DNA of 64,000 nt from Candidatus Doudnabacteria bacterium (GCA_041644975.1 JBAZQX010000008.1:334-64333), one strand, 5' to 3'. Positions 3,783 through 30,493 are shown, counted from the stretch's first letter. The notes: generated from the letters alone by a model not told the origin. Translations and numbers: made by a program.

Positions 3783-4590
3783 TGACCACTCCTTTGGAAT
3801 TGTTAAACACAAAATAATCAAGAATTTCAATCACGCCATACGGCCATTTATCGCGCGCCACAACCTCCGCCCCCTCTTTGACTTTCTCCGCGGCATTATC
3901 CGGCGCTCCTGAATGACCAGCCACCGCGAACATCTCTAAATCCGCTGTGCTATCGCCAATGGCGACCATGTTTTCTCTGGCGACCGCATTCAATTCGCTC
4001 AAATATATAGCTCCTGCCCTCTTGCCCAAACCCTTCGCCACAAAATCCACGGCTGAAGCGCCATGCGTAAAATCAAATAAATTTTTAAAAACAATCGGCG
4101 AAGCTTCATCCTGGCCCTGAAAAATCTTTTTTACTTCTTCAAAAAAATCCTCAATTTTCGTCCCTGCCGGCGCCGCGATGGTGCGGCAAATCTTTTTATC
4201 CTCCTTTTGTCCTCCTAGTTTGAACAACGCCGGGGCTATCTCGCGATCAAAAAGCTCTAGAGCGCGTAAAACTTCCTCTGTAATCAAAGGGTGATATTTT
4301 AATTCCCAATTTTCGTGCCGCCGAAAAATCCCGCCATTTTCAAAACAGGACCAGAGCTCCGGATTAGTCTCTTTGAAACCTAAAGACTCAATTGCCGCAT
4401 AGCCATAATCATCTCCTCGGCCCGTAGCCAGTACAAAACCCCATTCACTTGCTTTTTTGTGGACTTCTTTAATTTTATTTTTTAGCTCCAGCATCCCTTC
4501 TAAATTCCACGGCTCGCCCGGTCCGCCTACGCCGTTCACGCTCCCATCCCAATCCAGAAGAAATAGTTTTTTGATTTCATTTTTTCTCAT
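3766..4590 (-). CDS. HAD-superfamily hydrolase (IIB/Cof-like phosphatase)
   Basis: DxD motif LLDWDGSV near the N-terminus and a C-terminal GDSTADLEMF motif; about 270 aa. Confidence 0.7.
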   Translation of the reverse strand: MRKNEIKKLFLLDWDGSVNGVGGPGEPWNLEGMLELKNKIKEVHKKASEWGFVLATGRGDDYGYAAIESLGFKETNPELWSCFENGGIFRRHENWELKYHPLITEEVLRALELFDREIAPALFKLGGQKEDKKICRTIAAPAGTKIEDFFEEVKKIFQGQDEASPIVFKNLFDFTHGASAVDFVAKGLGKRAGAIYLSELNAVARENMVAIGDSTADLEMFAVAGHSGAPDNAAEKVKEGAEVVARDKWPYGVIEILDYFVFNNSKGVVNDKRS

Positions 4591-4657: not shown

Positions 4658-5440
4658 TTATTGAGCTCCTATATATTCCACAAAAGATCTAATAACCCAT
4701 GCCGTTTCCAAGGGTGCGCTACCCTTATTCGGAGCATGGATTTTAGCAGCATCCCAAACCTCTTTAGCGTTTGTAAAAGGAGCTCCAGATTGCCCAACCG
4801 CTCCAAACACGGGGATGCCACTCTTTGCATCATCCACATAGATAACGTTTTGAGGATCAACACCATTCCGGTAACAAAGATCTAAAATATTTTTTTCCTT
4901 AGAACCACCAACTGGCCAAATATCTACGGCCGAATTGGTTCTCGTGCATTTCACAATCTCTGCAAGCTTGAGATCACCAATATAATCCTGGACAATTTTT
5001 AAAAGTTCATCCAGTGAACCACCATCCGGCGGATTATAGGTTAAGCAGACCTCCTTCTTTTCCTGTTTTCCGCCCCGTTTTTTTATTTCTGAAACAAGAG
5101 TTATATTCAGTATCTCACGCGCATCTAAATATTCTTGGGTAACGCAATCTGCATACTCACATAACCAAGATGGCGTGTGTTGCGCCATAATTAAGCCGCC
5201 CTCAAAACCAGACCAATGCCCAAAATGACTTTTTATCAACCCCAAGGCTTCGGAGATGGCGAATCCGTACTGCACACCACGCCCAGTTAGTAAACAAACA
5301 CTAAAACTCGTCGGAACTTCTGCAATTGTTTTGGCAAGTTCTGCCATCCCTACCAAATCCCATAGTATCCCAGGACCGCCGGTACGACTATTACAACAAC
5401 CATCGAAATCTAAAACTACAGAGTACTTTATCTCTTTCAT
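4658..5440 (-). CDS. HAD-superfamily hydrolase, tandem paralog of the upstream gene
   Basis: VVLDFDGCC, GGPGILWDL.GMAEL and LLTGRG align with the neighbouring HAD protein (LLDWDGSV, GGPGEPWNLEGMLEL, LATGRG). Confidence 0.7.
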   Translation of the reverse strand: MKEIKYSVVLDFDGCCNSRTGGPGILWDLVGMAELAKTIAEVPTSFSVCLLTGRGVQYGFAISEALGLIKSHFGHWSGFEGGLIMAQHTPSWLCEYADCVTQEYLDAREILNITLVSEIKKRGGKQEKKEVCLTYNPPDGGSLDELLKIVQDYIGDLKLAEIVKCTRTNSAVDIWPVGGSKEKNILDLCYRNGVDPQNVIYVDDAKSGIPVFGAVGQSGAPFTNAKEVWDAAKIHAPNKGSAPLETAWVIRSFVEYIGAQ

Positions 5441-6812: not shown

Positions 6813-7077
6813 CCTGCGTGGTTCAGGGTTATTATTTAATTGCTCTCTCTATAGAAGCTTCCTTATTAATCTTACCTAAAAATTAAGAAGATGACAAAAT
6901 TCTAATTATAGTTTTCCATTTTGCCTGCCCCGCTCGCCTTTAACCTGTCTGTCAGTTTATATTACTTAGCAAATATAAATGAGCAGTTATCGGTAGACTA
7001 TTTAACGCGAGGCGGGCCGGGGAATTTTAAATTTATTTTACCCATTTGACACCTTCAATGAGATGCGATAAATTAAA

Positions 7078-8265: not shown

Positions 8266-8428
8266 AATATACAGGCCTTCTACATAACGGCAAGAGGTGA
8301 GAAAAAAGGAAGGTCTTTTTGTTTTTTTAAAAAAAGGTATAATAAATATAAGACGCTCGCCTGCCGGCGAGACAGGAAGAGCAGTCAGACCACGGGCGTG
8401 AGCCCGTGGAGCTTCACTTTACATTTTA

Positions 8429-8553
8429 CCCCGTTAGAGAAAGTGCATCCCATTACAAATTCATTTGTAATGGGATAGTCATTACCACTTAAAACTGACC
8501 CCGTTAGAAATAAATTTCTAAAAGGGGTTAGAGAACGAAGTTCTCTAACGGGG
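8429..8553. repeat. Family A palindromic element (CCCCGTTAGAGAA ... TTCTCTAACGGGG), copy 1, upstream of pilB
   Basis: Terminal inverted repeats ccccgttagagaa/ttctctaacgggg, an internal hairpin cccattacaaat/atttgtaatggg, and a conserved ccccgttagaaataaatttctaaaagggg hairpin. Confidence 0.7.
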
Positions 8554-8569
8554 TTTACGCTTTTATATT

Positions 8570-10228
8570 ATGTCCGAAGATATCCAAAATCAACAATCCC
8601 AAGACGTTACCGAGCTTTTCAACACCGTGGAAGAAAAAAGCATTAGCTTTGAAGAAAAAAGGATTAAAGCCATGGCGTTAAAAAATAGAATGCCCTACAT
8701 TAATCTGCAAAAGCTGGCGATTGAATCTGAAGCTTTAACCTTGATTTCTAAAGCTGAAAGCGTAAAAGGCCAAATCATCTGTTTCTATAAAAGTAAGGAT
8801 GTTTTAAGGTTGGGCATTACTGATCCTCACAACCAAGCCGCTTTAAGTGTTATTGAGACGTTAAAAAAACAATATCAATGCATTATTTACCTCATTTCGG
8901 AAGCCAGTTTTGAACACGCCATTTCCCTTTATCCGCTCACGGTTGGTGAAATCAAAAGTCCGCTTGCGGAAGAAGAAAAAATTAGAATCACCTCGGATTT
9001 AATCGCGGGAGCCTCTTCGGAACTAGAATCCTGGCAAGCCTTGGGGCCGGCTCTCATCAACAAAAATACTGAAGAAATTATTAGTCTCCTTATTGCGCGG
9101 GGTATTGGGGCAAGAGCGAGCGACATCCACCTAGAGCCTAAAGAAAATGAAGTGGTTCTGCGCCTCCGCATTGATGGAATTATGCGCGACATCATTGCCT
9201 TCTCCCCTCAGATTTACCCCCGTATTCTTTCGCGAATAAAATTAATCGGGGGACTAAAATTAAATGTCAGAAAAATGCCCCAAGATGGCCGATTCACTGT
9301 TTATCAAAATCACGCAGAAATTGACATTCGGGTTTCTAGCCTGCCCACTAATTACGGGGAGGCAATTACCCTGCGCCTGCTTGGCCTTGATCGTGATTAC
9401 CTGCTCAAGATTGAAAACTTAGGCATCGCCGAGGAAGAATTAAAAATCGTAAAAACCGACCTCGGCAAAACTAGCGGGATGATTTTGCTCACCGGCGCCA
9501 CAGGCTCCGGAAAAACCACTACCCTTTACGCTTTTTTAAGCCACAGAAAGACACCCGAGATTAAAATTATGACCCTAGAAGATCCTATTGAATATCGTCT
9601 TGAGGGAATTTCTCAAATTCAGATTAATGAAAGAGAGGGCCTTACTTTCGCTCGGGCGCTGCGCGGCGTGTTAAGGCAAGATCCTGATGTAATTATGGTC
9701 GGTGAAATCAGAGATCCGGAAACCGCGGAGATCACCATTCGCGCCGCCACCACCGGACATACAGTCCTTTCTACCCTCCATGCCGGTTCTACTTCAGAGA
9801 TTATTACGCAACTAAGCAATATGGGAGCAGACCCGCAAAACCTCTCCAACGTCTTAAATCTATTAATCAACCAAAAATTGGTGCGCCGTCTTTGCCAAGA
9901 GTGCCGCAAGCCTTACGATGTCTCTCCGGAACTTTATGAAAAGATTAAAAAAGTCGCCCAAAACAAAATATCCCTGCCAGAAAAATTAACTCTCTTTAAG
10001 CCCAAAGGGTGTGCACTTTGCGAAAATATCGGCTATAAGGGACAGGTCGGCATCTTTGAAATTATGCATATTTCCAGGATAATTCGCAAATTAATTGCGA
10101 GTCGCAGCGCGCCCGAAGAAATTTATAGCGAGGCTATTCAAGGAGGAATGTTTACCTTGATCCAAGACGGTTTGCGCAAGGTGGTACGGGGCGATACCAC
10201 CTTGGAAGAATTAAAAAGAGTAAGTTAA
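8570..10228 (+). CDS. pilB: type IV pilus assembly ATPase PilB (GspE family)
   Basis: T2SSE N-terminal domain, Walker A GATGSGKTTTLYA, and a tetracysteine CQECRK...CALC motif. Confidence 0.85.
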   Translation: MSEDIQNQQSQDVTELFNTVEEKSISFEEKRIKAMALKNRMPYINLQKLAIESEALTLISKAESVKGQIICFYKSKDVLRLGITDPHNQAALSVIETLKKQYQCIIYLISEASFEHAISLYPLTVGEIKSPLAEEEKIRITSDLIAGASSELESWQALGPALINKNTEEIISLLIARGIGARASDIHLEPKENEVVLRLRIDGIMRDIIAFSPQIYPRILSRIKLIGGLKLNVRKMPQDGRFTVYQNHAEIDIRVSSLPTNYGEAITLRLLGLDRDYLLKIENLGIAEEELKIVKTDLGKTSGMILLTGATGSGKTTTLYAFLSHRKTPEIKIMTLEDPIEYRLEGISQIQINEREGLTFARALRGVLRQDPDVIMVGEIRDPETAEITIRAATTGHTVLSTLHAGSTSEIITQLSNMGADPQNLSNVLNLLINQKLVRRLCQECRKPYDVSPELYEKIKKVAQNKISLPEKLTLFKPKGCALCENIGYKGQVGIFEIMHISRIIRKLIASRSAPEEIYSEAIQGGMFTLIQDGLRKVVRGDTTLEELKRVS

Positions 10229-10247
10229 GCGATATTCATCGCCTTTA

Positions 10248-10393
10248 CCCCGTTAGAGAAAGCCACCGATTTTAATCGGTGGTCATTACCGCTTAAAGTT
10301 GGCGATGGCTTAACGCCACCGTCAGTGCAAACCGTTAGCCCCGTTAGAAATAAATTTCTAAACTGGGTTAGAGAACGAGGTTCTCTAACGGGG
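10248..10393. repeat. Family A palindromic element, copy 2, downstream of pilB
   Basis: Same termini and the same internal ccccgttagaaataaatttctaaa module as copy 1, with a different internal hairpin (ccaccgattttaatcggtgg). Confidence 0.7.
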
Positions 10394-10481
10394 TTTACTT
10401 GCGGAGCGCGGAGCAGGGTCTCCAAAAAATGAAACTTTTTAGGGTTCACTGTTACCCCTTATTATCCGAAATAGATGTTAG

Positions 10482-11537
10482 CTAGAGTTTAAGGTTAGAA
10501 TCTGCCTGAAGGCTATGCCAGTCGTCGTAGTCTTTTTTTAATGCCCGTGGATAAGCCGCCCCTGCGATCATAGCAGCGTTATCAGTAGGGAAATCAGTAA
10601 TTAGTAACTCGTAATCAGTAACTGGTAAGGATTTTTTGAAGAAATTTTGAAGAGCCTGATTCGCGGCCACGCCGCCCGTCAATATTATTGTGGAGACTTT
10701 AAATTTTCGCGCCGCCCGCAAAGTTTTAATCACTAAAACTTCAAAGGCAGCCTCCTGAAAAGAGGCGCAAATATCTTGAACAACTTTTTTGTTCATTTTT
10801 TTAATTTGACGCGCTTGATAAAGCACGGCGGTTTTTAAGCCTGAAAAACTAAAGTTAAAATTACCCTGATTTAAGATTGGCCGTGGAAAAGAAAAAGCCT
10901 GTCTCCCGCCGCCTCGCGCCAGCTTTTCAACAATCGGTCCGCCCGGATAACCCAAGCCCAATAATTTAGCCACTTTATCAAAAGCCTCCCCGCAAGCGTC
11001 ATCAATAGTTTCGCCAATCACCTCATAATTTCCCCACTCTTTAACTAAGACCAACATTGTATGCCCCCCGGAAACCGTGAGGCAAACTGCTGGCAATCTA
11101 ACCTTCCTATTCTCTCCCTTAATTCTTGCTTCTTGCTTGCCCGCCGAAGCTCCATCAGCGAAGGCGGGATTCTTGATCCTAATAGAATAGATATGCCCCT
11201 CAATATGGTTTACGCCCAGTATGGGTTTCCTAAAAACATAAGCCAAGGTTTTAGCAGTATCCACGCCGACCATTAAAGAAGTAATTAAGCCTGGCCCCGT
11301 GGTGACGGCGATCGCGTCCAAATCTTTTCCTTCTACTTTAGCCTCTTCCAAAGCTCTTTGAATTACCGGAATGATGTTTTCCATATGGGCGCGAGAGGCG
11401 ATTTCAGGCACCACCCCGCCATAATGGGCATGTAACTTGACTTGGGAAGAAACTATGTTAGAAAGAATAACACGGCCATCTTTTACTACAGCAGCTGCGG
11501 TTTCATCACATGATGTTTCAATACCCAAAATTAACAT
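10482..11537 (-). CDS. tsaD: tRNA N6-adenosine threonylcarbamoyltransferase TsaD
   Basis: MLILGIETSCDETAAAV N-terminus and DNAAMIA C-terminal motif; Kae1/YgjD family. Confidence 0.9.
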   Translation of the reverse strand: MLILGIETSCDETAAAVVKDGRVILSNIVSSQVKLHAHYGGVVPEIASRAHMENIIPVIQRALEEAKVEGKDLDAIAVTTGPGLITSLMVGVDTAKTLAYVFRKPILGVNHIEGHIYSIRIKNPAFADGASAGKQEARIKGENRKVRLPAVCLTVSGGHTMLVLVKEWGNYEVIGETIDDACGEAFDKVAKLLGLGYPGGPIVEKLARGGGRQAFSFPRPILNQGNFNFSFSGLKTAVLYQARQIKKMNKKVVQDICASFQEAAFEVLVIKTLRAARKFKVSTIILTGGVAANQALQNFFKKSLPVTDYELLITDFPTDNAAMIAGAAYPRALKKDYDDWHSLQADSNLKL

Positions 11538-11539
11538 AA

Positions 11540-11700
11540 AATTTTAAATTTTAAGTTCTAAATTTTAAATCAAATCTAAATTTTAAATTCTTAATTTTAA
11601 AACTTTTTTTCCTTGGTTTTAAAATTTAAAATTATGATTTTAAAATTGAATTAAAATTAAAAATTTAGAATTTAAAATTCTATATATACGCTATCCTAAT
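11540..11700. repeat. AT-only low-complexity tract with reiterated aaattttaaa units
   Basis: About 160 bp with almost no G/C, made of short imperfect tandem AT repeats, between tsaD and the tRNA. Confidence 0.5.
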
Positions 11701-11817
11701 TATTGAAAATTATCAATCTTTATGCTAAAGTCATTTTGTTGTATATTTAAAAAACTTTTCACTTTTAACTCCCGCCTGCCAAAGCATGGCGGGCAGGTTA
11801 AACTTTTAACTTACATT

Positions 11818-11890
<73 letters not shown>

Positions 11891-12321
11891 CTAATAAATA
11901 ATCTAAAAATAAAAAATCGATTCTGAAAAATAACCTTTTCAATATCTAAAAGGAATCGAACCAGGGAAGGGGTAGGGGAAACAATAGTTTCCCCGCTGTG
12001 GAAGTATTGAAACCATGCCCGCCAATGTCTGGCATGGCAGGCGGGCGCAAGGTTTCAAAAAACTTTAGCGACGTGAGATTCCCCATAGGGCTGCAATTAA
12101 GAAATGTCAACAATTTGGTATCATCTTGCTTCACCAAGCGACCAAATTGTAATGGATTTTGGGTAGAAAAACGATTGGCGATTTTTTGCCAAAGGCAGGG
12201 GTAAAAAAATTTATCTCTATTAAACAGAAATCTGACTATTTCTTTTTTATTTTAGATTAGCCAAATTTGTGCGTTATCTGCAGATAATTTTGCTTATCTT
12301 AGGTCAAAATATAAGCATATC

Positions 12322-12349
12322 TTGACAAAATACGAAAATATGATATTAT
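12322..12349 (+). promoter_or_regulatory. near-consensus sigma70-type promoter (TTGACA - 16 nt - TATTAT)
   Basis: cttgacaaaatacgaaaatatgatattatatc lies about 105 nt upstream of the 12455 ORF. Confidence 0.4.
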
Positions 12350-12454
12350 ATCTATATCACACATTTTTACCTAAATAGGTATTGCATTTCAGTATTCAGC
12401 AGTTCTTTACCACGCGCCTGCACAATGCGGGCATTAAGATAAAGGAGTTTAATT

Positions 12455-12826
12455 GTGAACGCTTATCGCAGATGGCTCTGTAGGCAAAATAAAAACACGG
12501 GAAAACCAATGTGGTGGGTGGTTTTCGGCTTAGGTATAGTAATCGTGCTTACCTGGGTCGCTGCAGCTCTACCCTGCATCGGCATGTTTACTGGATGGAA
12601 CTCGCTGGGTGAAATCGTGCACCTGTCCACCAACAAACTCGGCTTAACCATCTATGGATTCTGGACCTTGTCTGAACCGGTGGCGACTTACTACATAGTC
12701 GGAGTGATTTTGTCCGTGGCTCTAGTTATGTTCGGGTGGCTCATAGCCGAAATCGGTCAGAACTATGGACACGGACTTCGGTATTATATGCCGGCATCCG
12801 GCCACCCTCATGGCTGCTGGCAGTAA
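12455..12826 (+). CDS. small integral membrane protein (123 aa), locally GC-rich gene
   Basis: Two or three predicted TM helices; GC content visibly higher than the flanking DNA. Confidence 0.45.
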   Translation: MNAYRRWLCRQNKNTGKPMWWVVFGLGIVIVLTWVAAALPCIGMFTGWNSLGEIVHLSTNKLGLTIYGFWTLSEPVATYYIVGVILSVALVMFGWLIAEIGQNYGHGLRYYMPASGHPHGCWQ

Positions 12827-13041
12827 TCTATGTCGAGGATGAGTTACACCGTCCTCACTACCTCTTTGTAAATTTTGATAAAATTTACTATAGGGAGGTA
12901 GTTTTTTATTTATGCAGTATTTTTCATTCTTTCCCGTTATAAATTAAAGAACAGACTTGCTGCTCTTTCAAAATCAAAATTGCCTCTTATCTCTTGTTCT
13001 GTTATAATGAACGCAAAATCAACCGTTCTTGTTTTTTGATT

Positions 13042-13728
13042 ATGCGACTTTTATTCTACATCTTGATTGCGCTCGCGCCAGGTATTTTTTGGCTCATTTT
13101 TTATCGCCGCAAGGATCGTGAAGAGCCGGAACCTGTAAAGCTCGTCTTTAAAATCTTCATCTGGGGTATGTTGATGACCATACCGGCAGCCGCCTTGGAA
13201 TTTATCGTGGACTACATTATGCCTTACTCGGATAATGATAGCATCAGTCAAATTATCTGGGGGACCTTTCTCGTGATTGCGCCGGTGGAAGAGTATTTAA
13301 AATATCTTGTAATCAAAAGAAAAGTCTACCGCCGCCCTGAATTTGACGAACGATTGGACGGGATTATTTATGGCACGGTCGCGGGTCTTGGCTTCGCTTC
13401 CTTAGAAAATCTGATGGCCACCTTAGGCAATGGTCCTTCTATTATTCTCTTCCGCTTTTTTACCGCCACCCTAATGCACGCCTTAACCTCTGGTATTGTC
13501 GGCTATTACTTAGGCCGTGCCCGCTTTAACCCGAAAGCGGAAAAAAAGCTAATCCTGCGCGGACTTCTAATTGCCATCATCATCCACGGAGCCTACAATT
13601 TTATGATTACGTTGAGACTGAATCTGACTATCCCCTTCTTAATCATCTTACTCCTCGGTATTTTTATCACTTTGAATCAGCTGATTAAAATCCTAAAAGG
13701 GAGAAAAGCCCAGCTTAATAGTAAATAA
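13042..13728 (+). CDS. PrsW-family intramembrane protease
   Basis: Multi-TM protein with EEYLKYLV, FASLENL and HALTSGIVGYY motifs typical of PrsW; the ORF opens at 12994 but the probable start is MRLLFY. Confidence 0.65.
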   Translation: MRLLFYILIALAPGIFWLIFYRRKDREEPEPVKLVFKIFIWGMLMTIPAAALEFIVDYIMPYSDNDSISQIIWGTFLVIAPVEEYLKYLVIKRKVYRRPEFDERLDGIIYGTVAGLGFASLENLMATLGNGPSIILFRFFTATLMHALTSGIVGYYLGRARFNPKAEKKLILRGLLIAIIIHGAYNFMITLRLNLTIPFLIILLLGIFITLNQLIKILKGRKAQLNSK

Positions 13729-13761
13729 TTTTAATAATTAAGAAATAGGAGGCAAAATAAA

Positions 13762-14208
13762 ATGGCAAAAAAAACTTTTTTGGAAAAACTGGCAGGAGCA
13801 AAAAATGTTCCGCTGGAAAATGCTCCTCAAAGGAATGAGGGCAATATCCCGCCGCGTGAAGAGCCCACGCAAGACTATGAAGGCCAACTCACCATTGATG
13901 TCTATCAGACTCCCAATGAAATTGTGATCAAATCTACTATTGCCGGCGTGAAACCGGAAGATTTAGACGTCACGATCAACAATGATATGCTCACCATCAA
14001 AGGCGTGCGCAAAAATGACGCGCGGAATAAACCCGAGGATTATTACTATCAAGAATGTTACTGGGGTCCTTTCTCCCGCTCCGTGATTCTGCCCGTGGAT
14101 GTAGAAGCAGAAAACATCAAAGCGGAATTAAAAAATGGCATTCTCACCATTGTTCTCCCTAAGGCCTCCAAAGCCAAAACAAAAACAATCACCGTGGAAG
14201 CTACATAA
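13762..14208 (+). CDS. Hsp20/alpha-crystallin small heat-shock protein
   Basis: 148 aa with an ACD domain (IDVYQTPNEIVIK...GILTIVLPK). Confidence 0.85.
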   Translation: MAKKTFLEKLAGAKNVPLENAPQRNEGNIPPREEPTQDYEGQLTIDVYQTPNEIVIKSTIAGVKPEDLDVTINNDMLTIKGVRKNDARNKPEDYYYQECYWGPFSRSVILPVDVEAENIKAELKNGILTIVLPKASKAKTKTITVEAT

Positions 14209-14310
14209 AAGGCGCGCCTCTTTCAATACGCTTTTAAAAACAAAAGAATCACGCAGTTTGTCTTTTTTTACCACACGCGCATATAAAAAAATAATCAATA
14301 CTTTTCACCT

Positions 14311-17037
14311 ATGATTACAATCCAAAACAAGATTTCTTCTGTTTGTGACCATATTATTCTTTGGGCATTAATTTTGCTGGCTTTTTTGGTTCCCCTCTTT
14401 TTTCTCCCTTTTACGCCGCAACTCACCGAGTTCTCCAAGCAAGTCCTTTTCTTTGTCACTGTTCTAATTGGGTATCTTGCTTGGTTTGGCAAGGGAATCT
14501 TAAATAAAAAACTCATTATTAAACGGACTCCTCTGGATATTCCCATTCTGGCCTTTTTAATTGTGTATGGACTGGCGACCATCTTTTCGGTGGACCGCGT
14601 GACGAGTATTTTAGGCGCTTACGGCCAAGGCGCCGCAGGCTTGGTGAGTGTTATTTTTTACGCCCTTCTGTATTTTATCTTGGTGAGCAATGTGAACAGC
14701 CGCAAAAAAGTATTGCGGCTTTGTATAAGCCTTCTCATCTCTACTACTATTTTAGTTGCTTTTGTTTTTCTCCAAATCTTTAATATCTTCATCCTGCCTT
14801 TTGAGTTCGCAAAAAACATCTCTTTCAACCCCGTAGGCTCCTTCTCGTCGCTTGTGACCTTTCTCGCCTTTGTCTTAAGCATCGCCACCGCTTTTTTGCT
14901 AAAGCCCCGGATGAATATCATCTTTAGAATTATGGTTTTAATCTTGGTTTTAGCCGCGCTTATTCTGCTCAACACGATTAATTTCAAAATAGCCTGGCAT
15001 ATCCTTATCCTAAGTATGTTTATTATCTTGAGCTTTGGAATCGCCAAGGAAAAAGAATATATCAACAAAGGATGGTTAATCGTGCCCGCGGCTATCCTCG
15101 TAATTGCTATTTTCGCCACTACATTGGGTATTCCCTCTATTATTAAAGGAAAACTACCCAGCGAGGTTTCTCTAAGCTTTAAACTTTCCATGGAAACTAC
15201 TCGCCAAACTCTCTGGCATGGTTTCTTTAATTTTCTTTTCGGTTCTGGACCAGAGACTTTCGGTTATGATTTTTCAAGCTTCCGACCAGCCAGCTTTAAT
15301 CAAAATATCATCTGGAATGTCCGCTTTGACAAAGCCAATAACACCTATCTGGAACTTTTAGCTACCAGCGGCGCTTTAGGGATATTAACCTATATTGTGA
15401 TCCTTCTAATTTTTATTGGATCCTCCAGTCTCCTACTAATCAAATCAAAAAGAGAGTATCTTCCTGCCCGCCATCGCTTCGCTTCAGGCGAGGCGGGCGG
15501 GTTCGGAACAAACAATAATAAGTCCCAAAAAATGGCGTTGCCTCCCCATCAATCCTTCTTAAAATCAAGATTTGCCTTGTTCCACAAATCCGCCACCCTA
15601 AACCCTCCCCCGGAAAAAACAATAGATCCTGGCAACGCAAATGAGCAAAGAACCGAGACAACAACTTCAACGCCAATAGAACTCCCAAATATTGAGAGAG
15701 AAGCTACCCTCCCAACCGCGGAAGAACCGCGGAACATTAATATTAACCTTAAAACAGGAAGGGAAATCTTCCATTCCTCATCATCTAAAGGAGTCGTGGA
15801 TTTGAAAACCAGAACAATCAAAGAAGACGAAGAGGAAGAGGAAGAAGAAGAGATAGCGCGCCCCGAACCGCATGCTGATTTTATTATCTTGGGTATCGTA
15901 GGCGCTTGGGCGGCTCTGTTTCTCGCTAACTTTTTAAATTTCGCCAATACCACACTGCAAATTTTTTTCTGGTTCTCCATGGGGTTGATTATGGCCCTCG
16001 TTACTGTCTATCGCCCTCAAGAATTTAAAAAAACAAAGCTTTCTTTCAAGACCTCGCCCAAATATGCGCTGTTTCTCTCCTTTATCTTTGTGTTAGCCCT
16101 TTGTATGGTTACGGTTCTCTTTACTTATCTCGGAAAAATTTATCTGGCGGACGTTTACCATCAACGAGGGTTAGAGAAAATTGCCGCGGAAAAATACAAC
16201 GAAGCTACCGCCCTCTTCCACCGTGCCGTCGCGCTAAATAAATACCGACCAATATACTATTTAGCCCTAGCCCAAAACTACTTGACCCAAGCTAACTTAG
16301 AAGCCGCCAAGGGAGAAGCGGCAGACATCAACCAAATTCAAACCCTGGTTGCCAATAGTATCAACGAATCCAAACTCGCTACCGATCTTTCCCCTAGCGA
16401 TGTCAATCTGTGGGAAGCCCGAGGTCAAATCTACGAAAACACAACTCTCTACTCGCGAAACGCCAATGAATGGGTGATTAAGTCTTATGAAAAGGCGCTG
16501 GAATTAGAGCCGACGAATCCCACCTTTTTAGCGAAACTCGGACGTGCCTATATGATTTCCGCTTCCACGGCAGAAGGCGAAGAGCAAGAAAATAATTATA
16601 ATCAGGCTCTGGAAGCTTTCAAAAAGGCGGTGGAGTTAAAACCAGACTACCTTGCCGCCCATTATTATCTTGCTCTAATTTATGAAAACAAGAAACAGTT
16701 TGACGAAGCCTTAGAGCAAATTGGCACCGCGTATCAAATTGCTCCCCAAAATCAAGATATCATTTATGAATTGGGTCGCGTTTCCTATAATAAAGCAATG
16801 GTTGGAGATCATAATGACTTAAAAAATAACTTAGATTTCCAACGCGCCATGGATGCCTTCAATCTCGTGGTCAGTCAAAATGCCAACCACGCCAATGCTC
16901 TCTATAGTCTAGGCTTGGCTTATGAAAGTCTGGGTGAAACTGGTAAAGCCTTAGAAAATATTCGAAGGGTTCAAGAACTCAATCCAGATAATGAACAGAT
17001 TAAACAAAAAGTCCAAGATTTAGAATCCAAACTCTAA
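14311..17037 (+). CDS. polytopic membrane protein (O-antigen ligase/Wzy-like) with C-terminal TPR repeats and a low-complexity insert
   Basis: At least 10 TM helices in the N-terminal half, TPR-like repeats in the C-terminal 300 aa, and a poly-Glu run in the middle. Confidence 0.6.
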   Translation: MITIQNKISSVCDHIILWALILLAFLVPLFFLPFTPQLTEFSKQVLFFVTVLIGYLAWFGKGILNKKLIIKRTPLDIPILAFLIVYGLATIFSVDRVTSILGAYGQGAAGLVSVIFYALLYFILVSNVNSRKKVLRLCISLLISTTILVAFVFLQIFNIFILPFEFAKNISFNPVGSFSSLVTFLAFVLSIATAFLLKPRMNIIFRIMVLILVLAALILLNTINFKIAWHILILSMFIILSFGIAKEKEYINKGWLIVPAAILVIAIFATTLGIPSIIKGKLPSEVSLSFKLSMETTRQTLWHGFFNFLFGSGPETFGYDFSSFRPASFNQNIIWNVRFDKANNTYLELLATSGALGILTYIVILLIFIGSSSLLLIKSKREYLPARHRFASGEAGGFGTNNNKSQKMALPPHQSFLKSRFALFHKSATLNPPPEKTIDPGNANEQRTETTTSTPIELPNIEREATLPTAEEPRNININLKTGREIFHSSSSKGVVDLKTRTIKEDEEEEEEEEIARPEPHADFIILGIVGAWAALFLANFLNFANTTLQIFFWFSMGLIMALVTVYRPQEFKKTKLSFKTSPKYALFLSFIFVLALCMVTVLFTYLGKIYLADVYHQRGLEKIAAEKYNEATALFHRAVALNKYRPIYYLALAQNYLTQANLEAAKGEAADINQIQTLVANSINESKLATDLSPSDVNLWEARGQIYENTTLYSRNANEWVIKSYEKALELEPTNPTFLAKLGRAYMISASTAEGEEQENNYNQALEAFKKAVELKPDYLAAHYYLALIYENKKQFDEALEQIGTAYQIAPQNQDIIYELGRVSYNKAMVGDHNDLKNNLDFQRAMDAFNLVVSQNANHANALYSLGLAYESLGETGKALENIRRVQELNPDNEQIKQKVQDLESKL
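15463..15506. repeat. 45-bp fragment of the Family B MITE-like element embedded in-frame in the CDS
   Basis: cctgcccgccatcgcttcgcttcaggcgaggcgggcggg is 44/45 identical to 52806-52850 and encodes LPARHRFASGEAGGFG. Confidence 0.6.
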
Positions 17038-17139
17038 AAAGACTGAATTTCCAAAAACTATAATGAACAAAGCCCTCTTTATTTGGAAAGAGGGCTTTAA
17101 ATTTGAAAAAAAAGTATCTTTTCGTTATAGTATAATAAA

Positions 17140-17170
17140 CCCCGTTAGAGAACGAGATTCTTTAACGGGG
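17140..17170. terminator. Family A minimal hairpin (ccccgttagagaacgagattctttaacgggg) downstream of the TPR gene
   Basis: 13-bp stem with one mismatch, about 100 bp after the stop codon. Confidence 0.5.
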
Positions 17171-17293
17171 TAAATAACAAAAACGCAAAGCGTAGAATTT
17201 CATCCCTAGCGGGAGATCACCCGAAAGGGTGACAAAACCACAACTAAAAAACGCTTTATAGTTTTAGTTTTAAAACAAAGTTGATTTTATTTT

Positions 17294-19162
17294 ATGCCTA
17301 AAAGAAACAAGAATAAACTGAATCTCCCATTCTTTTGCACCATCGTCTTTCTTCTGGTATTTGGCGGTTTTATTTTAATGCAGAATCTCCTCTACGCCGA
17401 AAAAATTTACCCCCATATCAAAGTGGCGGGTTTAGATCTGGGAAGTAAAACCAAAAATGAGGCGCAAAGCATCTTGCAAGACCGCATCAACTATTTTCAA
17501 AATCAGGGGGTCTCTATTTTCTATAAAGAAAGGGAATGGCCCCTGGCTGAAGAAGATATCGGACTTACCTTCAAAGTGAACCAAACTTTGGACGAAGCGT
17601 TTCTTTTCGGTCACGAAGAGGATATTATTCAAAGGTTAAAAAGCCAACTTGCAATTCTCACACAGGGTGTGAATTTATCTTTGCGATATGAACTAGACGA
17701 GGATAAGCTAGATCAATATCTAAAAAATAACTTAATGTTCTTAGAGATAAAACCGGAGATGGCGGAAGTGATTTTGGAAAATTCTGGTTTCGAAATTAAA
17801 GAAGAAAAAACTGGTCAAGAGATAGACCTCGCGGAACTCAAGCAAAAAATTAAAAATAGTTTAGATAATCTTCAGGATCAAAAAATAGAGGTGGTTATTA
17901 AAGAAAGCCGCCCTGAAGTGACCCGCGCCAATGTCCTAGATGCTTATAATATGGCGGAGGAAATGGTTCAAAAACCCTTAAAACTTACTTATGAAAAAAA
18001 ATATTGGACTGTTTCTCCAAAAATGCTTGTTTCTTGGGTTGACTTTCAATTAAACCAAGATAAGGTAATGGAGGCGGGTTTAAAAAGGGAAACCGCGGAC
18101 GCCTTTCTAAAAAACGTTGCCGCTGAAATTGAACAGGAACCTGAAGATGCCCGTTTTAAAATTGACAATAGCCGCGTCGTTGCTTTTGAGTTAGGGCAGG
18201 ATGGCAAAAAGATTGATTTGGAAGAAACGATGGAATTGATTAAAAACGCCCTGCAAACTCCAACCGAAGGGAGCGAGAAAAAAACGGAAATCACAGTGCG
18301 CACGGTCACGCCCAATGTAAGCAATCAAAATATTGATGAACTCGGCATTAAAACCTTGATTGGTACGGGAGAATCAGACTTTGCCGGCTCTCCCTTAAAC
18401 CGCAAACATAATATTGGTGTCGGCTCGGAAAAATTGAACGGTGTTTTAATTGAACCGGGCGAAGAATTCTCCATCGTTCAAACCTTAGGCGAGGTATCGG
18501 CAGCTACGGGTTACAAACCAGAACTTGTGATTAAACCCGAGGGAACGATTCCCGAATTTGGCGGGGGCTTGTGCCAAGTCTCCACAACCCTCTTCCGCGC
18601 GGCTATATATTCTGGCCTGCCGATCACGGAACGCAAAGCCCATAAATATGTCGTCTCTTATTATAAACCGACTGGAATGGATGCCACGATTTATATTCCT
18701 CATCCAGATCTGCGTTTTAAAAACGACACGCCGGGTCATATCTTGATCCAAAAACGCATCATTGGCAATAAACTCTATTTTGATTTTTACGGCACTGACG
18801 ACGGTCGCGAGGTAAAAATTGAAGGTCCGTACTATACTTCAGGGTGGGTTAACCCGAGCCCGCCGGAATACATTGAAACCAACACCCTGAAAAAAGGAGA
18901 AAAGAAACAAATAGAAAAGGAACACAAGGGCATTTCCACGGTTTTTCACCGCGCCATAACCCGTGATGGGCAGGAAATTCTGCGTGATAGTTTTTATTCT
19001 AAATACCAGCCTTGGAACGCCGTATTCTTAGTAGGCACAGGCGGAACTGATGTCAAAGGCGAACAAAAAGAAAATACTCCGCCCAAAATAGAAAACCAAC
19101 AAAAAAAACCGCCCCCACCGACAGAAATTAAAAAGAAGCCACCCGTCAAGGAAGAGGAATAA
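17294..19162 (+). CDS. VanW-domain protein with N-terminal TM anchor
   Basis: The C-terminal GEEFSIVQTLGEVSAATGYKPELVI...GGGLCQVSTTLFRAA matches the VanW domain; 622 aa. Confidence 0.75.
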   Translation: MPKRNKNKLNLPFFCTIVFLLVFGGFILMQNLLYAEKIYPHIKVAGLDLGSKTKNEAQSILQDRINYFQNQGVSIFYKEREWPLAEEDIGLTFKVNQTLDEAFLFGHEEDIIQRLKSQLAILTQGVNLSLRYELDEDKLDQYLKNNLMFLEIKPEMAEVILENSGFEIKEEKTGQEIDLAELKQKIKNSLDNLQDQKIEVVIKESRPEVTRANVLDAYNMAEEMVQKPLKLTYEKKYWTVSPKMLVSWVDFQLNQDKVMEAGLKRETADAFLKNVAAEIEQEPEDARFKIDNSRVVAFELGQDGKKIDLEETMELIKNALQTPTEGSEKKTEITVRTVTPNVSNQNIDELGIKTLIGTGESDFAGSPLNRKHNIGVGSEKLNGVLIEPGEEFSIVQTLGEVSAATGYKPELVIKPEGTIPEFGGGLCQVSTTLFRAAIYSGLPITERKAHKYVVSYYKPTGMDATIYIPHPDLRFKNDTPGHILIQKRIIGNKLYFDFYGTDDGREVKIEGPYYTSGWVNPSPPEYIETNTLKKGEKKQIEKEHKGISTVFHRAITRDGQEILRDSFYSKYQPWNAVFLVGTGGTDVKGEQKENTPPKIENQQKKPPPPTEIKKKPPVKEEE

Positions 19163-19206
19163 AAAAAAATGACGAGTAGACCCCGTCATAAGATAAAAAT
19201 CCGCTT

Positions 19207-19392
19207 CTATCTCAAGCGACTAACAAGAAAGACAAAGGGTATTAAAACGACTATGTCTGTTATAATCATTCCCCATCTTCCTTGAGGAAGCTTCAAGTGT
19301 TTAAATAACTGCCATACAAGAATAGTAAAAATAGCATAAAGCGCGCCGTTCCAACACAATAATAATATAAAATCAACTATCGTCCCATTCAT
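19207..19392 (-). CDS. small membrane protein (about 61 aa)
   Basis: MNGTIVDFILLLCWNGALYAIF..., two TM helices; the longer 113-aa ORF upstream overlaps a structured region and is doubtful. Confidence 0.3.
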   Translation of the reverse strand: MNGTIVDFILLLCWNGALYAIFTILVWQLFKHLKLPQGRWGMIITDIVVLIPFVFLVSRLR

Positions 19393-19446
19393 TTGTATCC
19401 TCCTTGGTTGTTTTAAAGCACAACATAAACCTCTGATATAGCGCTC

Positions 19447-19715
19447 CTTAATCTGTAGACGTGCGCTCCCAAGTCTACTTGAGAGCAAGGCTAATCCTCG
19501 AGGATAAGGCAAGTCTGCCCCCCTCACCCAGAAAGGATTTGGGTACAAACACCCGACATATTTTGATATGGATTAATCAATAAAACTCAAAATATATGGG
19601 TAGTGGATTGATATTGAGCTCTGCTCATATCCATTCTGGGTGAGGGGTAACTCGCGCTTTATAAATATCCATCGCAAAAAGATTAGCCCTTCTTTAAAAC
19701 CGCCTACAGATTAAG
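19447..19715. ncRNA. candidate structured RNA / nested long-range inverted repeats
   Basis: ttaatctgtag (19447) pairs with ctacagattaa (19705), ccctcacccagaa (19520) pairs with ttctgggtgaggg (19636), and there are internal hairpins gggtacaaacaccc, tgagctctgctca and atatggat/atccatat. Confidence 0.3.
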
Positions 19716-19729
19716 AAGTACCATCTTTA

Positions 19730-19820
19730 CCCCGTTGGAGAAAGTGGGGAAGATATAGACGCTGACCCCGTTAGAAATAAATTTCTAAACGGGGTCAGAG
19801 AATGAAGTTCTCTAACGGGG
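19730..19820. repeat. Family A palindromic element, copy upstream of ruvB
   Basis: ccccgttggagaaag ... ccccgttagaaataaatttctaaacgggg ... ttctctaacgggg. Confidence 0.7.
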
Positions 19821-19964
19821 TTTACAGACGAACGCTATACATTAGCACAGTTAAAATCTCCTGTCAAGCCTTTTTGTAAAAAACGAAGAAAATTCAAAAT
19901 AAATCTTTGTCAACGCGCAAAATCAATTGTATAATATAATGAACAGGTTTAAATCCAAACCAAA

Positions 19965-20981
19965 ATGCCATTGAGTCCAGTCGTCTCCCATACTGAAAAA
20001 AATGAAGATAAAAATCTTGATTTAAGACTTAGACCGCAAACCCTTAAAGAATATATCGGTCAAGCTAAAATCAAAGAAAGTCTGGCAATTTTTTTAGCCG
20101 CGGCAAAAAAAAGGAAAGAACCTTTAGAACACATCCTTCTGTACGGACCGCCGGGATTAGGAAAAACTACCCTTGCCAATATCATCGCGCGGGAAATGGG
20201 GGTAGCGATTAAAACTACCTCCGGACCCGCTTTAGAGCGGCCTGGCGATTTGGGCGCGATTTTGACTAATCTTGAGGATGGCGACATCCTCTTTATTGAT
20301 GAGTGCCACCGCATGAATCGCCAGATTGAAGAAATTCTGTATCCCGCGATGGAAGAGCAGGTTTTAGATATTATTATCGGCAAAGGACCTTCGGCTAAAA
20401 ACATCCGCCTCCCCTTGAATTGTTTCACCCTGATCGGCGCAACCACCAAAATCGGCATGCTCTCCTCGCCTTTGCGCGACCGTTTCGGCTCGGTTTATCG
20501 CCTGCGCTATTATGAAGTAGAGGAGATAGAACAAATCATCGCGCGTTCCAGCCATATCCTTAAAGTGCAAAAAATGGAAAAGGCGGCCCTGAAAAAACTT
20601 GCCTGCTGTTCACGCCGCACGCCCAGAATTGCCAATCGGCTCTTAAAAAGAGTACGCGATTACGCCGAAGTGAAAACAAACGGTTCTGTTAACCTAAAGG
20701 TGGTCGAAGCCGCCCTAGCTATGCTGGAAATTGACAAGTTAGGCTTAGATCATATTGACCGCGAACTATTGAAAGTGATTATTGAAAAATTTGACGGCGG
20801 ACCAGTGGGTTTGAATGCCCTCTCCGCTTCTTCTTCCGAAGAACAAGACGCGATTGAAGAGGTGCACGAACCCTTTTTATTGCAAGCGGGTTTATTGACC
20901 CGCACCCCGCGCGGCAGAATCGCCACCGATCTTGCCTATGAGCACTTAAACATTGTTCCTCATAAACAGAAGATGCTATAA
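19965..20981 (+). CDS. ruvB: Holliday junction branch migration helicase RuvB
   Basis: [12 protein letters not shown]...[18 protein letters not shown]; AAA+ fold; 338 aa. Confidence 0.9.
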
Positions 20982-21042
20982 TAACTTGAATAACTTTCTA
21001 TTTACAATCAATTTTTGATGCTTCAATACCTAAATTTTCAAA

Positions 21043-21073
21043 CCCCGTTAGAAATCAAAATTTCTAAACGGGG
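21043..21073. terminator. Family A minimal hairpin ccccgttagaaatcaaaatttctaaacgggg downstream of ruvB
   Basis: 13-bp perfect stem, 60 bp after the ruvB stop. Confidence 0.5.
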
Positions 21074-21154
21074 CAAACATTTCGAAAAAATTTATCCTCC
21101 ATATTAAAAATTGAAAATTAATAATGTCTTTATAATTAATCTCAACTCTAAACT

Positions 21155-23735: not shown

Positions 23736-24151
23736 CCACCCATATCCTTCCGAGAGAAGAAATCCATAGAAGGGTTAAAACCTACCAGAATTTCTTAAAT
23801 GATGATGGAACTCCAAAATCGAGAAATAGGCATCCAATTAAAGGAAGTTATACATTAAAATATTACCGAGACAAGATATCCAACGAAGAAATTAAAAGGA
23901 AATTTGACGAAATAAGGAAACGCCTGAAAGGTAGTAACCCCTTAATTCAAGAAGAATATACTAGACGGAGGCTAACTTATTGGATTGCTAACCGCCGTCT
24001 TTACACTTTAGAACCCCACAGAAAAACATTGTATTTAAAAATAACTAGAGCAAAAGAGATGAAAGGATTTAGGAGGCATTCTGACCATAATAAAACATAC
24101 TTCCTAATTAAAAATGGCTCTAACGTCAAAAAGATTTTAGCCCAACTTTAA
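23690..24151 (+). CDS. hypothetical protein (153 aa) at the left edge of the element
   Basis: The ORF begins at the insertion junction; basic, Lys/Arg-rich; no motif. Confidence 0.3.
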   Translation: MDCPHKQTKTFSIFITTHILPREEIHRRVKTYQNFLNDDGTPKSRNRHPIKGSYTLKYYRDKISNEEIKRKFDEIRKRLKGSNPLIQEEYTRRRLTYWIANRRLYTLEPHRKTLYLKITRAKEMKGFRRHSDHNKTYFLIKNGSNVKKILAQL

Positions 24152-24369
24152 GTGGAGTATTACTAAGGATATGTTTAATAAAAAGCTAAAAGAGTATAAG
24201 GAAAATCAGGCAGAAATAGAAGCAAGAATGCAAAGCTACACCGATATCGACAAAAGCTTTTATTTAACTGCAAATATGGTCTTAAATCTCGCTCAAAGAG
24301 CTTAAGTACTCTTCCAAAGTTCTGAAGTAGAAAAAAAACGGCAACTTTTAAATTCTTTATTTTAGAACC

Positions 24370-24960
24370 TTGAATGAATTACCCAACCGCAGCAGAGCTG
24401 CGGGGTATCTAAATTTTAAACAACCTTAGTTGATGTGATTGAGCTTTTTCCATGTGGTCGCCCTGTTCTCTAATATATTTTTTAACAACCTCTTCACTGG
24501 CTTGGTCTCCAACTGTTCCAATATATCCTCCGTCACTCCAAAACTCGCCTCCCCAGAGCATTTTTCTCAATTCAGGAAAAGATTTAAACATCTGTTTGGC
24601 GGAAATACTCTTGATCGCCTGCATTATTACCGATGGTGAATGGCGGGGCGCAGTCCCGACAAAAATATGAACATGGTCTCCATCTGTTCCGATTTCGTCT
24701 ATTTCATACCAATATCTTTCGCCAATCTCCTTAAAAACTTTTTTTAATCTTTCCAAACGGTCTTGCGGTTCTAATAACTTTTTCCGATATTTTACGCACA
24801 TTACCATGTGATAACGTATTTTATAGCTGCAGTGGCTAGCAAACTTTGTTTCCATACTTCCTTCGTCAGTATTTTCAATATACCACCATTCCTTCCTATG
24901 TCAGGATCTCCGATATATCACGTCCCACCGACCCAACCGCAGCAGAGCTGCGGGGTATAT
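24370..24960 (-). mobile_element. IS200-like insertion sequence (tnpA only) with subterminal hairpins
   Basis: The identical 29-mer acccaaccgcagcagagctgcggggtat lies at both ends (24377 and 24930) flanking the Y1 transposase gene. Confidence 0.75.
24409..24855 (-). CDS. tnpA: IS200/IS605-family HuH tyrosine (Y1) transposase TnpA
   Basis: 148 aa, HuH motif DHVHIFV, catalytic Tyr in FWSDGGYIGTVG, YHMVMCVKYRKK N-terminus. Confidence 0.85.
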   Translation of the reverse strand: METKFASHCSYKIRYHMVMCVKYRKKLLEPQDRLERLKKVFKEIGERYWYEIDEIGTDGDHVHIFVGTAPRHSPSVIMQAIKSISAKQMFKSFPELRKMLWGGEFWSDGGYIGTVGDQASEEVVKKYIREQGDHMEKAQSHQLRLFKI

Positions 24961-25060
24961 TAACCGCTAATCAATTTCAAATTAAAAGGCAAAAAACTTT
25001 TATTTAAGCTAAAAACACCGTTTGATACGGTGCTTTTGGGCTAATAGGTGTTCTAATTTG

Positions 25061-25101
25061 CTCCGCGGGCTGGCGGCTGTTAGAACCTGTTTGATGGGAT
25101 A
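25061..25101. repeat. about 40-bp conserved box (ctccgc.g.ctgg....gttagaacctgtttgat) immediately 3' of the 193-aa gene
   Basis: Shares a perfect 17-mer, gttagaacctgtttgat, and flanking similarity with 29502-29542. Confidence 0.55.
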
Positions 25102-29450: not shown

Positions 29451-29501
29451 GATATAAAAACAAAAATATTATTCTATTTGGCTTTCAACGATTTTTATCT
29501 C

Positions 29502-29542
29502 CTCCGCAGACTGGACGAAGTTAGAACCTGTTTGATAAGTTC
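29502..29542. repeat. second copy of the about 40-bp conserved box, 50-90 bp upstream of the 1256-aa gene start
   Basis: ctccgcagactggacgaagttagaacctgtttgataag aligned against the 25061 copy. Confidence 0.55.
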
Positions 29543-29690
29543 ATTATAGCGTAAAAAAGAATCATTCCAAATCACCTGATATCTCGGGTATACCCTACCC
29601 TGCTACTCACTATATCTTGGAAATAAAAAAGAGGTCAAGTTTCAAGACCTGACCCCTATTTTCCTATCAGACATCTTTATTTAAACTAAT

Positions 29691-30218: not shown

Positions 30219-30493
30219 TTTTATTTTAAAGATGTAATGAAAAATGTAATCAAAATATCAGAGAGATATTTTAAAACTTTTATAAACCAAAAACAAACTG
30301 AACACAACTAAAAAATGGCTAAGCGAATTTCAAAACCAAATTGCTACCACTCCCCTGCACGGATTTATTAAAGATATTGAAAAAAGCCTTGAAGAATTTA
30401 AAGTATTTAAACTTAACAAATGAGGCAGGTTATCCACTTGCATTGTAAAGAATTGTAAAGTATAATTAAAGTGTAATTCATTTAACTAACAAT

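Follow-up and report, generated by a model that had tools for sequence, protein, structure and literature searches.

A dispersed family of short inverted-repeat elements with 4-bp target duplications, probably non-autonomous transposons, in a Candidatus Doudnabacteria genome

Five Elements at the Locus

The DNA considered here, called the window, is a stretch of 64,000 nucleotides from Candidatus Doudnabacteria bacterium (GCA_041644975.1 JBAZQX010000008.1:334-64333), and between its positions 8,429 and 21,073 it carries five copies of a palindromic element that we call family A. The genes around the copies are those for undecaprenyl-diphosphatase (BacA), a DHH-family protein, pilB, tsaD, a tRNA, a PrsW-family protease, Hsp20, a TPR protein, a VanW-like protein, ruvB and a bacterial-type PGI; one match of the window PilB, at 74% identity, bears the label Candidatus Torokbacteria, and the others are from Patescibacteria, which places the window in a bacterium of the Candidate Phyla Radiation (CPR). 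All five elements share one orientation, and all five are bracketed by 4-nt direct repeats, which an earlier reading made from the sequence alone (the sequence-only reading) had not mentioned and which are given below as target site duplications (TSDs). Terminal inverted repeats are abbreviated as TIRs, and loci outside the window are cited by their L numbers.

8425..8557 (+), long copy 1: 125-bp element 8429-8553 between TSDs TTTA (8425-8428 and 8554-8557); 5′ TIR 8429-8441, private hairpin 8446-8477 in place of helix P2, conserved linker TCATTACCACTTAAA 8480-8494, b-type hairpin 8499-8527, 3′ a-type hairpin/TIR 8528-8553
10244..10397 (+), long copy 2: 146-bp element 10248-10393 between TSDs TTTA (10244-10247 and 10394-10397)
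17136..17174 (+), minimal a-type hairpin: 17140-17170 between TSDs TAAA (17136-17139 and 17171-17174), 3 nt past the TATAAT box of the VanW-like gene
19726..19824 (+), long copy 3: 91-bp element 19730-19820 between TSDs TTTA (19726-19729 and 19821-19824)
21039..21077 (+), minimal b-type hairpin: 21043-21073 between TSDs CAAA (21039-21042 and 21074-21077), in the ruvB-PGI spacer

The sequence-only reading had placed all five elements exactly (8429-8553, 10248-10393, 19730-19820, 17140-17170 and 21043-21073), and the coordinates 8429, 10248 and 19730 bear out its statement that long copies stand on either side of pilB in the same orientation and that one precedes ruvB. The inverted termini that it described are indeed shared by the long copies, except that the 5′ terminus of copy 3 has one mismatch (CCCCGTTGGAG); over the window copies the TIRs measure at least 10 bp (CCCCGTTAGAGAA / TTCTCTAACGGGG). 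Its "invariant internal hairpin" holds for a 24-nt stretch (CCCCGTTAGAAATAAATTTCTAAA) but not for the 3′ arm, which reads AAAAGGGG in copy 1 and AAACTGGG in copy 2 and is intact only in copy 3, and the private inserted hairpin claimed for every long copy is present in copies 1 and 2 but not obvious in copy 3. The picture of the minimal copies as terminators sitting just after stop codons is not supported. The 17140 copy begins 102 nt past the stop of the TPR gene, with a canonical terminator (17068-17099) upstream of it and a TATAAT box (17131-17136) directly before it, and the 21043 copy begins 62 nt past the ruvB stop; neither has a T-tract or U-tract, and no intrinsic terminator was called on the + strand at any of the five elements (tails TAAATAACAA, CAAACATTTC and TTTACGC). 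Copy 1 lies between a TATAAT box (8338-8343, conserved in L117 and L118) and the pilB ATG at 8570, which would place it within the pilB 5′ untranslated region (5′UTR). Copy 3, with an intact b-type hairpin at 19766-19794, follows a conserved non-coding stretch and lies upstream of a promoter-like site of ruvB (19907-19935).

With at most one mismatch allowed, CCCCGTTAGA has 12 matches in the window, all inside the five elements, compared to 2.44 ± 1.63 in dinucleotide-preserving shuffles, none of 100 of which reached 12; GTTAGAGAAC has 16 matches where 2.9 are expected, and the five elements fold with z-scores of -6.8 to -10.1 relative to their own shuffles. The crowding of five copies into 12.6 kb of the 64 kb (rough scan statistic, p ~0.006-0.03) could be taken for chance similarity or for a purely local duplication within 13 kb. 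The probability of this is next to nil, as it is refuted by these shuffle controls and by the hundreds of copies in unrelated genomes and metagenomes that are described below.

The 113-nt Form and Its Target

Copy 2 consists of a canonical 113-nt element (P2 at 10262-10283, P3 at about 10299-10325) and a 29-bp b-type hairpin (10339-10367) that is nested in it with a TSD of its own, TTAG (10335-10338 and 10368-10371). Removal of 10339-10371, that is, 33 nt comprising the hairpin and one TTAG, leaves 113 nt that align over their full length with metagenome copies, and the 113-nt form likewise aligns from end to end with copies in metagenome-assembled genomes (MAGs) of Omnitrophota (L015, L110, L051) and of a Planctomycetia member (L016). 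A metagenome scan with the first 30 nt of this element as query found them in 63 contigs; 23 of the 45 unique complete metagenome copies are exactly 113 nt long, and deletion forms of 81, 80, 77, 74 and 50 nt retain both ends. The founder is shown to be a 113-nt element in which a TIR, hairpin P2, a linker and hairpin P3 are followed by a second, internal copy of the left TIR, in direct orientation, that pairs locally with the right TIR. The family is defined by its ends, 10-13-bp inverted repeats of the form CCCCGTTAGARA...TYTCTAACGGGG, and outside the window these ends were counted in 45 long copies and 94 hairpins, all unique. Composites of 146 nt with a nested hairpin form a subfamily marked by common derived changes (CCGCTCG-hairpin-TAAAAGAAC); it recurs in different contigs, so composites spread as units. 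The architecture of alternative long-range and local pairings noticed in the sequence-only reading is real, and it has a historical cause in the internal direct copy of the terminal repeat and the nested insertion of a second hairpin.

TTTA stands on both flanks in 43-45 of the 45 long copies, and it is followed by C at +5 in 38/45 and by T at +6 in 33/45, with a random sequence on the upstream side, so that the target is the asymmetric TTTA^CT, entered in a single orientation. Rare variants of the flank match on both sides (CTTA/CTTA, TTCA/TTCA, TCTA/TCTA), and this changing together is what a true duplication predicts and what the fixed 3′ tetranucleotide of an HUH-type element would not produce. 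Insertion of the family is shown to duplicate 4 bp of the target, TTTA being preferred and TTTA^CT being used in fixed orientation by the long form.

RNAalifold applied to the 113-nt copies returns a terminal helix formed by the TIRs together with hairpins P2 and P3. The covariance analysis that the sequence-only reading had proposed found covariation in both hairpins: 93.6% of their cells are paired, 7 pairs show double changes, and slid controls collapse. Intermediates are G.U in 33 cells and A.C in 23, similar frequencies that favour neither strand and that speak against a strand-specific, RNA-level structure; upkeep of a hairpin or palindrome at the DNA level explains the covariation as well as RNA does. 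P2 and P3 matter, be it as RNA, single-stranded DNA, a cruciform or a symmetric protein site. The right (3′) TIR has diverged by 4.4% per site and the internal left-TIR copy by 8.9%, neither of them being part of the search pattern, and this slower divergence of the 3′ TIR fits the ends being the functional part.

Short Hairpins

A scan of one genome per species (GTDB) with the hairpin pattern CCCCGTTAGARA-N4-12-TYTNTAA-N0-1-CGGGG gave at least 116 genome loci, compared to an estimate of about one by chance. Among the matches listed, 58 of 107 hairpins have identical 4-nt flanks, whereas a shifted-register control gave 0/107 and inverted flanks 6/107. TAAA/TTTA accounts for 28 of 59 duplications (orientation ignored), and CAAG, CTAA, TCAA, CAAA and CTGA are found besides; the phyla hardly differ in this mix. 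In the stem, position 11 and its partner change together (A-T 61, G-C 29, mismatched 4), and the stem is lengthened by further complementary pairs in 71 of the 94 unique hairpins. Preferential insertion into the centres of larger palindromes was considered as well; examples in L021, L029 and L071 are anecdotal, and there is no enrichment over shuffled flanks.

Palindromes of this size and shape (29-33 bp) recall the repetitive extragenic palindromes (REP) and bacterial interspersed mosaic elements (BIME), which a domesticated single-copy HUH tyrosine transposase (RAYT or IS200/IS605 TnpA-like) could move or maintain, acting on single-stranded hairpins and inserting to the 3′ side of TTTA. IS608 inserts 3′ of TTAC, and the orientation-specific insertion of the 113-nt form beside TTTA, the compensatory changes that uphold the subterminal P2 and P3, and the lack of any linked transposase found would all agree with such a mechanism. 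HUH elements, however, make no TSD and have a fixed 3′ tetranucleotide, whereas the flanks here co-vary (CTTA, TTCA, TCTA, TTCG, TAAA, CAAG and others); moreover, an unpaired GTAG/CGTC tag was not found at the element ends, perfect TIRs reach the very ends, and no Y1 transposase is among the 25 most frequent Pfam families of 123 neighbouring proteins. We regard this mechanism as decidedly unlikely.

Nesting, Empty Sites, and Comparison with Relatives

Insertions nested in other copies carry TSDs of their own, which read TTAG in window copy 2, L117 and L045, CTAA in L039 and L051, and CTGA and TCAG in L064 and L045, and TTAG/CTAA in another copy's arm is a recurrent nesting target. A filled site in L071, GTTATG-TTCG-(31-bp hairpin)-TTCG-CT, has empty counterparts in L178 and L144, GTTATG-TTCG-CT, where TTCG is single. 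This pair is situated inside another dispersed palindromic repeat (GACAGATAAGTTATG ... CATAACTTATGTC) of Omnitrophota-type contigs, the loop of which served as target for a family A hairpin (L071:4215-4300, L178:5515-5574, L144:3196-3255, L099:6990-7050).

An exact look-up of the window PilB gave no record, and relatives of the window were located through protein homologues (PilB, RuvB). The closest is a sister genome from sample ERZ27284382 (loci L117 and L125), with 95% identity in PilB and 96% in RuvB, and a comparison of orthologous intergenic regions, suggested by the sequence-only reading, revealed both presence/absence and size polymorphism between these close relatives.

pilB leader: 125 bp in the window, absent in the sister (L117)
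pilB-tsaD site: 146 bp in the window, 64 bp in the sister (L117); direct CCGTTAG repeats bound the difference of 82 bp
Upstream of VanW: 31 bp in the window, a composite of ~55 bp in the sister (L125:1809-1863); TAAA flanks kept
Upstream of ruvB: 91 bp in the window, a 31-bp minimal hairpin in the sister (L125:4370-4400); the 60-bp difference is bounded by AGAGAA repeats; TTTA flanks kept
ruvB-PGI spacer: 31 bp in the window, absent in L125, L126 and L127

Overall, three sites are common to the two genomes with alleles of different size, and two sites are empty in the sister. None of the five copies is present in relatives with 74-90% identity (L118, L121, L124, L126, L127); the pilB-tsaD spacer of L118, L121 and L124 is at most 24 bp long and has no element, and L127 has none at the site upstream of VanW. 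Different alleles in the sister and absence from more distant relatives lead us to conclude that the family entered this lineage recently and is remodelled fast. In L118, TTTTACGCT is a putative empty site for copy 1, a match that is only suggestive as the surrounding sequence is too diverged. The size alleles show a route from long to minimal forms, namely deletion between the left TIR and its internal direct copy, and a perfect palindrome with 22-bp arms in L140 shows a second route to short forms, palindromisation.

The VanW spacer differs between window and sister by other indels too: 67 bp at 17185-17251, bounded by AAAAACGC direct repeats, are present only in the window, and an insertion of ~270 bp with inverted ends GACCTTTTGC...GCAAAAGGTC (L125:1470-1735) only in L125. 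These indels suggest further small mobile elements in the lineage. The non-coding stretch directly after which copy 3 is inserted is ~290 nt long, has complementary ends (AATCTGTAGACG ... CGCCTACAGATT) and is common to relatives down to 76% RuvB identity (window ~19440-19725 (+); L125 ~4080-4365; L127 ~9650-9850). It may be an unrecognised structured RNA gene; identification as RNase P RNA was dismissed because a search at E up to 1 gave no match in Rfam.

Distribution and Genomic Context

Outside the window, the family occurs in at least 116 genome loci and in 63 metagenome contigs. By record title, the genome loci among the matches listed fall into the following groups.

Patescibacteria: 31 loci
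Omnitrophota, including the complete Ca. Velamenicoccus archaeovorus genome: 30 loci
Nitrospirota: 20 loci
Planctomycetota: 13 loci
Delta-/other Proteobacteria: 9 loci
Cloacimonadota, Nitrospinota, Latescibacterota, NPL-UPA2, a Firmicute and an Aenigmatarchaeota MAG: 1 locus each
Unclassified: 7 loci

Many matches lie on contigs of 100-750 kb, so the spread cannot be explained by mis-binning, and some copies are flanked by the DUF1559 proteins typical of planctomycetes. Only three viral contigs carry the hairpin pattern. In L130 (IMG/VR contig 3300032170_000079, classed as viral), family A-type hairpins at 4734-4768, 6998-7049 and 9059-9108 fill one intergenic spacer after another in a row of co-directional genes, right up against the ends of the open reading frames (ORFs). 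BLAST of the 113-nt element against plasmid and phage collections returned only a chance 24-nt match. As literature search strings, CCCGTTAGA and TCTAACGGG gave primer matches only, and no description of the family was found in Rfam or in the literature on miniature transposable elements with inverted repeats (MITEs) of Omnitrophota or of the CPR.

The copies show no bias in orientation to the neighbouring genes (++ 13, -+ 8, -- 7, +- 3), these being unrelated housekeeping genes; of 139 copies, 104 fall where naive calling places no ORF, and in 16 of 80 cases the neighbouring gene stops within -10 to +4 nt of a copy. The proximity to stops could speak for a structured RNA or DNA signal, such as a leader, a stabilising or terminating hairpin or a protein site, that the host keeps for its function, as could the very stable folds (z -6.8 to -10), the covariation in P2, P3 and hairpin pair 11 (A-T 61, G-C 29, mismatches 4) and the position of copy 1 in the probable pilB 5′UTR. 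We consider such host selection quite unlikely, however. All four orientation classes occur and there is no association with orientation or gene class; neither the elements of the window nor ten canonical 113-nt copies match Rfam at gathering or permissive (E up to 1) thresholds; a U-tract is missing, and what precedes the 17140 copy is a real terminator and then a promoter box; G.U (33) and A.C (23) intermediates are about equally frequent with no favoured strand; and arrival of the copies by insertion is evident from TSDs, nesting and empty sites. The modular cis-regulatory RNA entertained in the sequence-only reading is not supported either, given the fact that the copies keep no fixed orientation or position to genes, have unrelated housekeeping neighbours and do not match Rfam.

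Nature and Movement of the Elements

Inverted termini, 4-bp duplications, nesting, polymorphism between relatives and copies elsewhere together lead us to conclude that the window elements are very probably non-autonomous DNA transposons, namely MITEs, of a previously undescribed family, the members of which are 29-146 bp in size, non-coding, multi-copy and dispersed. Of the label "MITE/REP-like" in the sequence-only reading, the first half thus stands (TIRs, 4-bp TSDs, nesting, polymorphism and hundreds of copies elsewhere) but the second does not, since there is no GTAG/CGTC tag and TSDs are present. The simplest mechanism would be movement in trans, by cut-and-paste or copy-in, through a transposase that makes 4-nt staggered cuts. 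The CC(C) ends and the 4-bp A/T-rich duplication point to the IS1380/piggyBac group, which we take to be a lead. As the alleles show or suggest, copies insert into each other, preferentially at TTAG/CTAA in another copy's arm, giving rise to the "invariant internal hairpin," and deletion between direct CCGTTAG or AGAGAA repeats collapses long copies to ~30-bp hairpins. The copies of the window would then be recent, essentially selfish insertions into AT-rich intergenic DNA beside promoters and gene ends, and any effect on the expression of pilB, VanW or ruvB would be a by-product, although single copies, given their positions, may secondarily have been co-opted (copy 1 as pilB leader; the 17140 copy in the transcription start region of VanW).

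Several observations weigh against this interpretation. Neither the window nor 1.4 Mb of fetched loci contains an autonomous element or transposase with these termini; the recombinase and reverse transcriptase content of the window is limited to a large serine recombinase in a low-GC island and the reverse transcriptase of a diversity-generating retroelement (DGR), and no transposase family is among the 25 most frequent Pfam families matched by 123 neighbouring proteins. The invariance of the first 10-16 nt, moreover, is partly due to how the copies were collected. Three further features, the oriented asymmetric target, the constraint on P2/P3 and the TSD-flanked ~30-bp forms, misfit a textbook DDE MITE. 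Strict single orientation at the asymmetric TTTA^CT, never at TAAA, is not what DDE elements with symmetric ends usually show. Double-change cells in P2/P3 number 28, compared to 13.3 ± 3.1 in column shuffles (0/500), and this compensatory covariation indicates a structural constraint beyond simple end recognition. Finally, palindromes of 29-33 bp are too short for synapsis of duplex DNA, yet they have diverse duplications of their own.

These short forms may have been inserted as longer elements that later collapsed, or else a hairpin or cruciform may be the form in which they move. The latter idea can be extended to a reading in which the ~30-bp CCCCGTTAGA palindrome is itself the complete mobile unit, extruded as a hairpin or cruciform with its ends side by side and acted upon by an unrecognised trans-acting protein that anaerobic lineages, ultra-small ones among them, have in common (CPR, Omnitrophota, Nitrospirota, Planctomycetota). 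We hold this reading to be doubtful. If true, the ~30-bp palindrome would be the smallest known transposable DNA, and its insertion would be structure-dependent and orientation-specific, unlike classical DDE or HUH transposition.

Candidates for an autonomous partner of the MITE family were discarded as follows. Long-range pairs of TIRs with a TSD, considered as autonomous insertion sequences (ISs), all enclose housekeeping genes (plsX, fabH, glycosyltransferases), and "orphan" ends considered as IS halves are merely imperfect hairpins. When the surroundings of all ORFs of 250 aa or more in the 1.4 Mb were searched for TIRs of any kind, the yield was just one IS, an unrelated one in a Nitrospirota MAG (L079:832-1876; 1045 bp, 25-bp TIRs (TGGGGTCAAACCTACAATATACATT), 318-aa ORF).

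Other Features of the Window

A DGR lies at 60833-63749, with a reverse-transcriptase gene at 60833-62200 (PF00078). Its repeats, 62156-62288 and 63101-63233, show 17 differences, and at all 17 the first has T and the second A, C or G; given this pattern, which on the other strand is adenine-specific, 62156-62288 is the template repeat and 63101-63233 the variable repeat, located in an ORF at 63105-63749 (-). Palindromic repeats unrelated to family A surround the DGR at 58065-63045, for example TGTCATCCTGAATTCATTTCAGGATCT and CCTGAAACAAGTTCAGCAAGACA (families D8-D13).

A block of low GC content at ~24000-44000 (0.32-0.37 vs ~0.41) is probably an integrated mobile element or prophage, and no family A copies occur in it. 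The following features were annotated there.

30999-33722: ResIII/SNF2 helicase
33712-34632: N6/N4 DNA methylase
36823-36947 (-): LOOT RNA, 96.8 bits
41407-43080: large serine recombinase

Significance and Comparison with Known Systems

For annotation, the family means that recurring intergenic hairpins in CPR, Omnitrophota, Nitrospirota and Planctomycetota are mobile DNA and not terminators or regulatory RNAs. As a marker, the termini with their 4-bp TSD signature trace recent horizontal exchange among co-occurring, mostly uncultured lineages, including episymbionts with reduced genomes, which are regarded as poor in mobile elements, and the sister comparison shows the pace at which such elements nest, collapse and reshape promoters and untranslated regions in a genome of roughly 1 Mb. 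Research on mobile DNA is presented with puzzles in the unfound transposase, in the target, which is asymmetric and oriented, and in the 30-bp forms flanked by TSDs.

Integron attC sites are imperfect palindromes of 60-140 bp with GTTAGA / TCTAAC heptamers, and the resemblance of GTTAGA/TCTAAC in family A to the attC core GTTRRRY/RYYYAAC raises the idea that the copies are recombination sites of an integron-like or other site-specific recombinase. Indeed, GTTAGAG/CTCTAAC fits the R-box consensus save for the last base. The polarity of the core is reversed, however: family A has GTT/AAC at the hairpin base (5′-GTTAGA...TCTAAC-3′; with the full heptamers, 5′-GTTAGAG...CTCTAAC-3′ on either strand), whereas attC (5′-RYYYAAC...GTTRRRY-3′) has GTT/AAC loopward. 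In addition, the 4-nt flanks differ between copies, a variation incompatible with a fixed crossover core, and the annotated ORFs of the window include no integron integrase, cassette array or tyrosine recombinase. A recombination-site origin is accordingly highly improbable.

With the IS1380/piggyBac group, family A shares CC(C) ends, TIRs of ~13 bp and a 4(-5)-bp A/T-rich TSD; piggyBac has CCCTAGAAAG... ends and duplicates TTAA. The target TTTA is non-palindromic, the likeness is limited to a few terminal bases, and no such transposase was found with these ends. REP/BIME/REPIN sequences associated with RAYT are not known to make target duplications. Like family A, they are GC-clamped extragenic palindromes of small size that frequently lie at the ends of genes and frequently lack a neighbouring transposase. 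One end of a REP bears an unpaired tag, GTAG or CGTC (PMC3733652), whereas family A has no tag, perfect TIRs and 4-bp duplications.

The bacterial MITEs, such as Correia/NEMIS in Neisseria, RUP in Streptococcus and bcr1 in the Bacillus cereus group, come closest to the reading preferred here, being alike small, non-coding, multi-copy and mostly intergenic, with TIRs, a TSD of fixed length, stable hairpins and presence/absence polymorphism. bcr1 likewise uses a specific A/T-rich target (TTTAT). Prokaryotic MITEs range from 50 to 800 bp (PMC11602168), and the family A derivatives of 29-33 bp fall below this range. The termini and internal sequence of family A are unrelated to those of any family found, and it further differs from known MITEs in its 4-bp TSD at TTTA^CT, the strict orientation of its 113-nt form, its recurrent self-nesting and its occurrence in many uncultured phyla.

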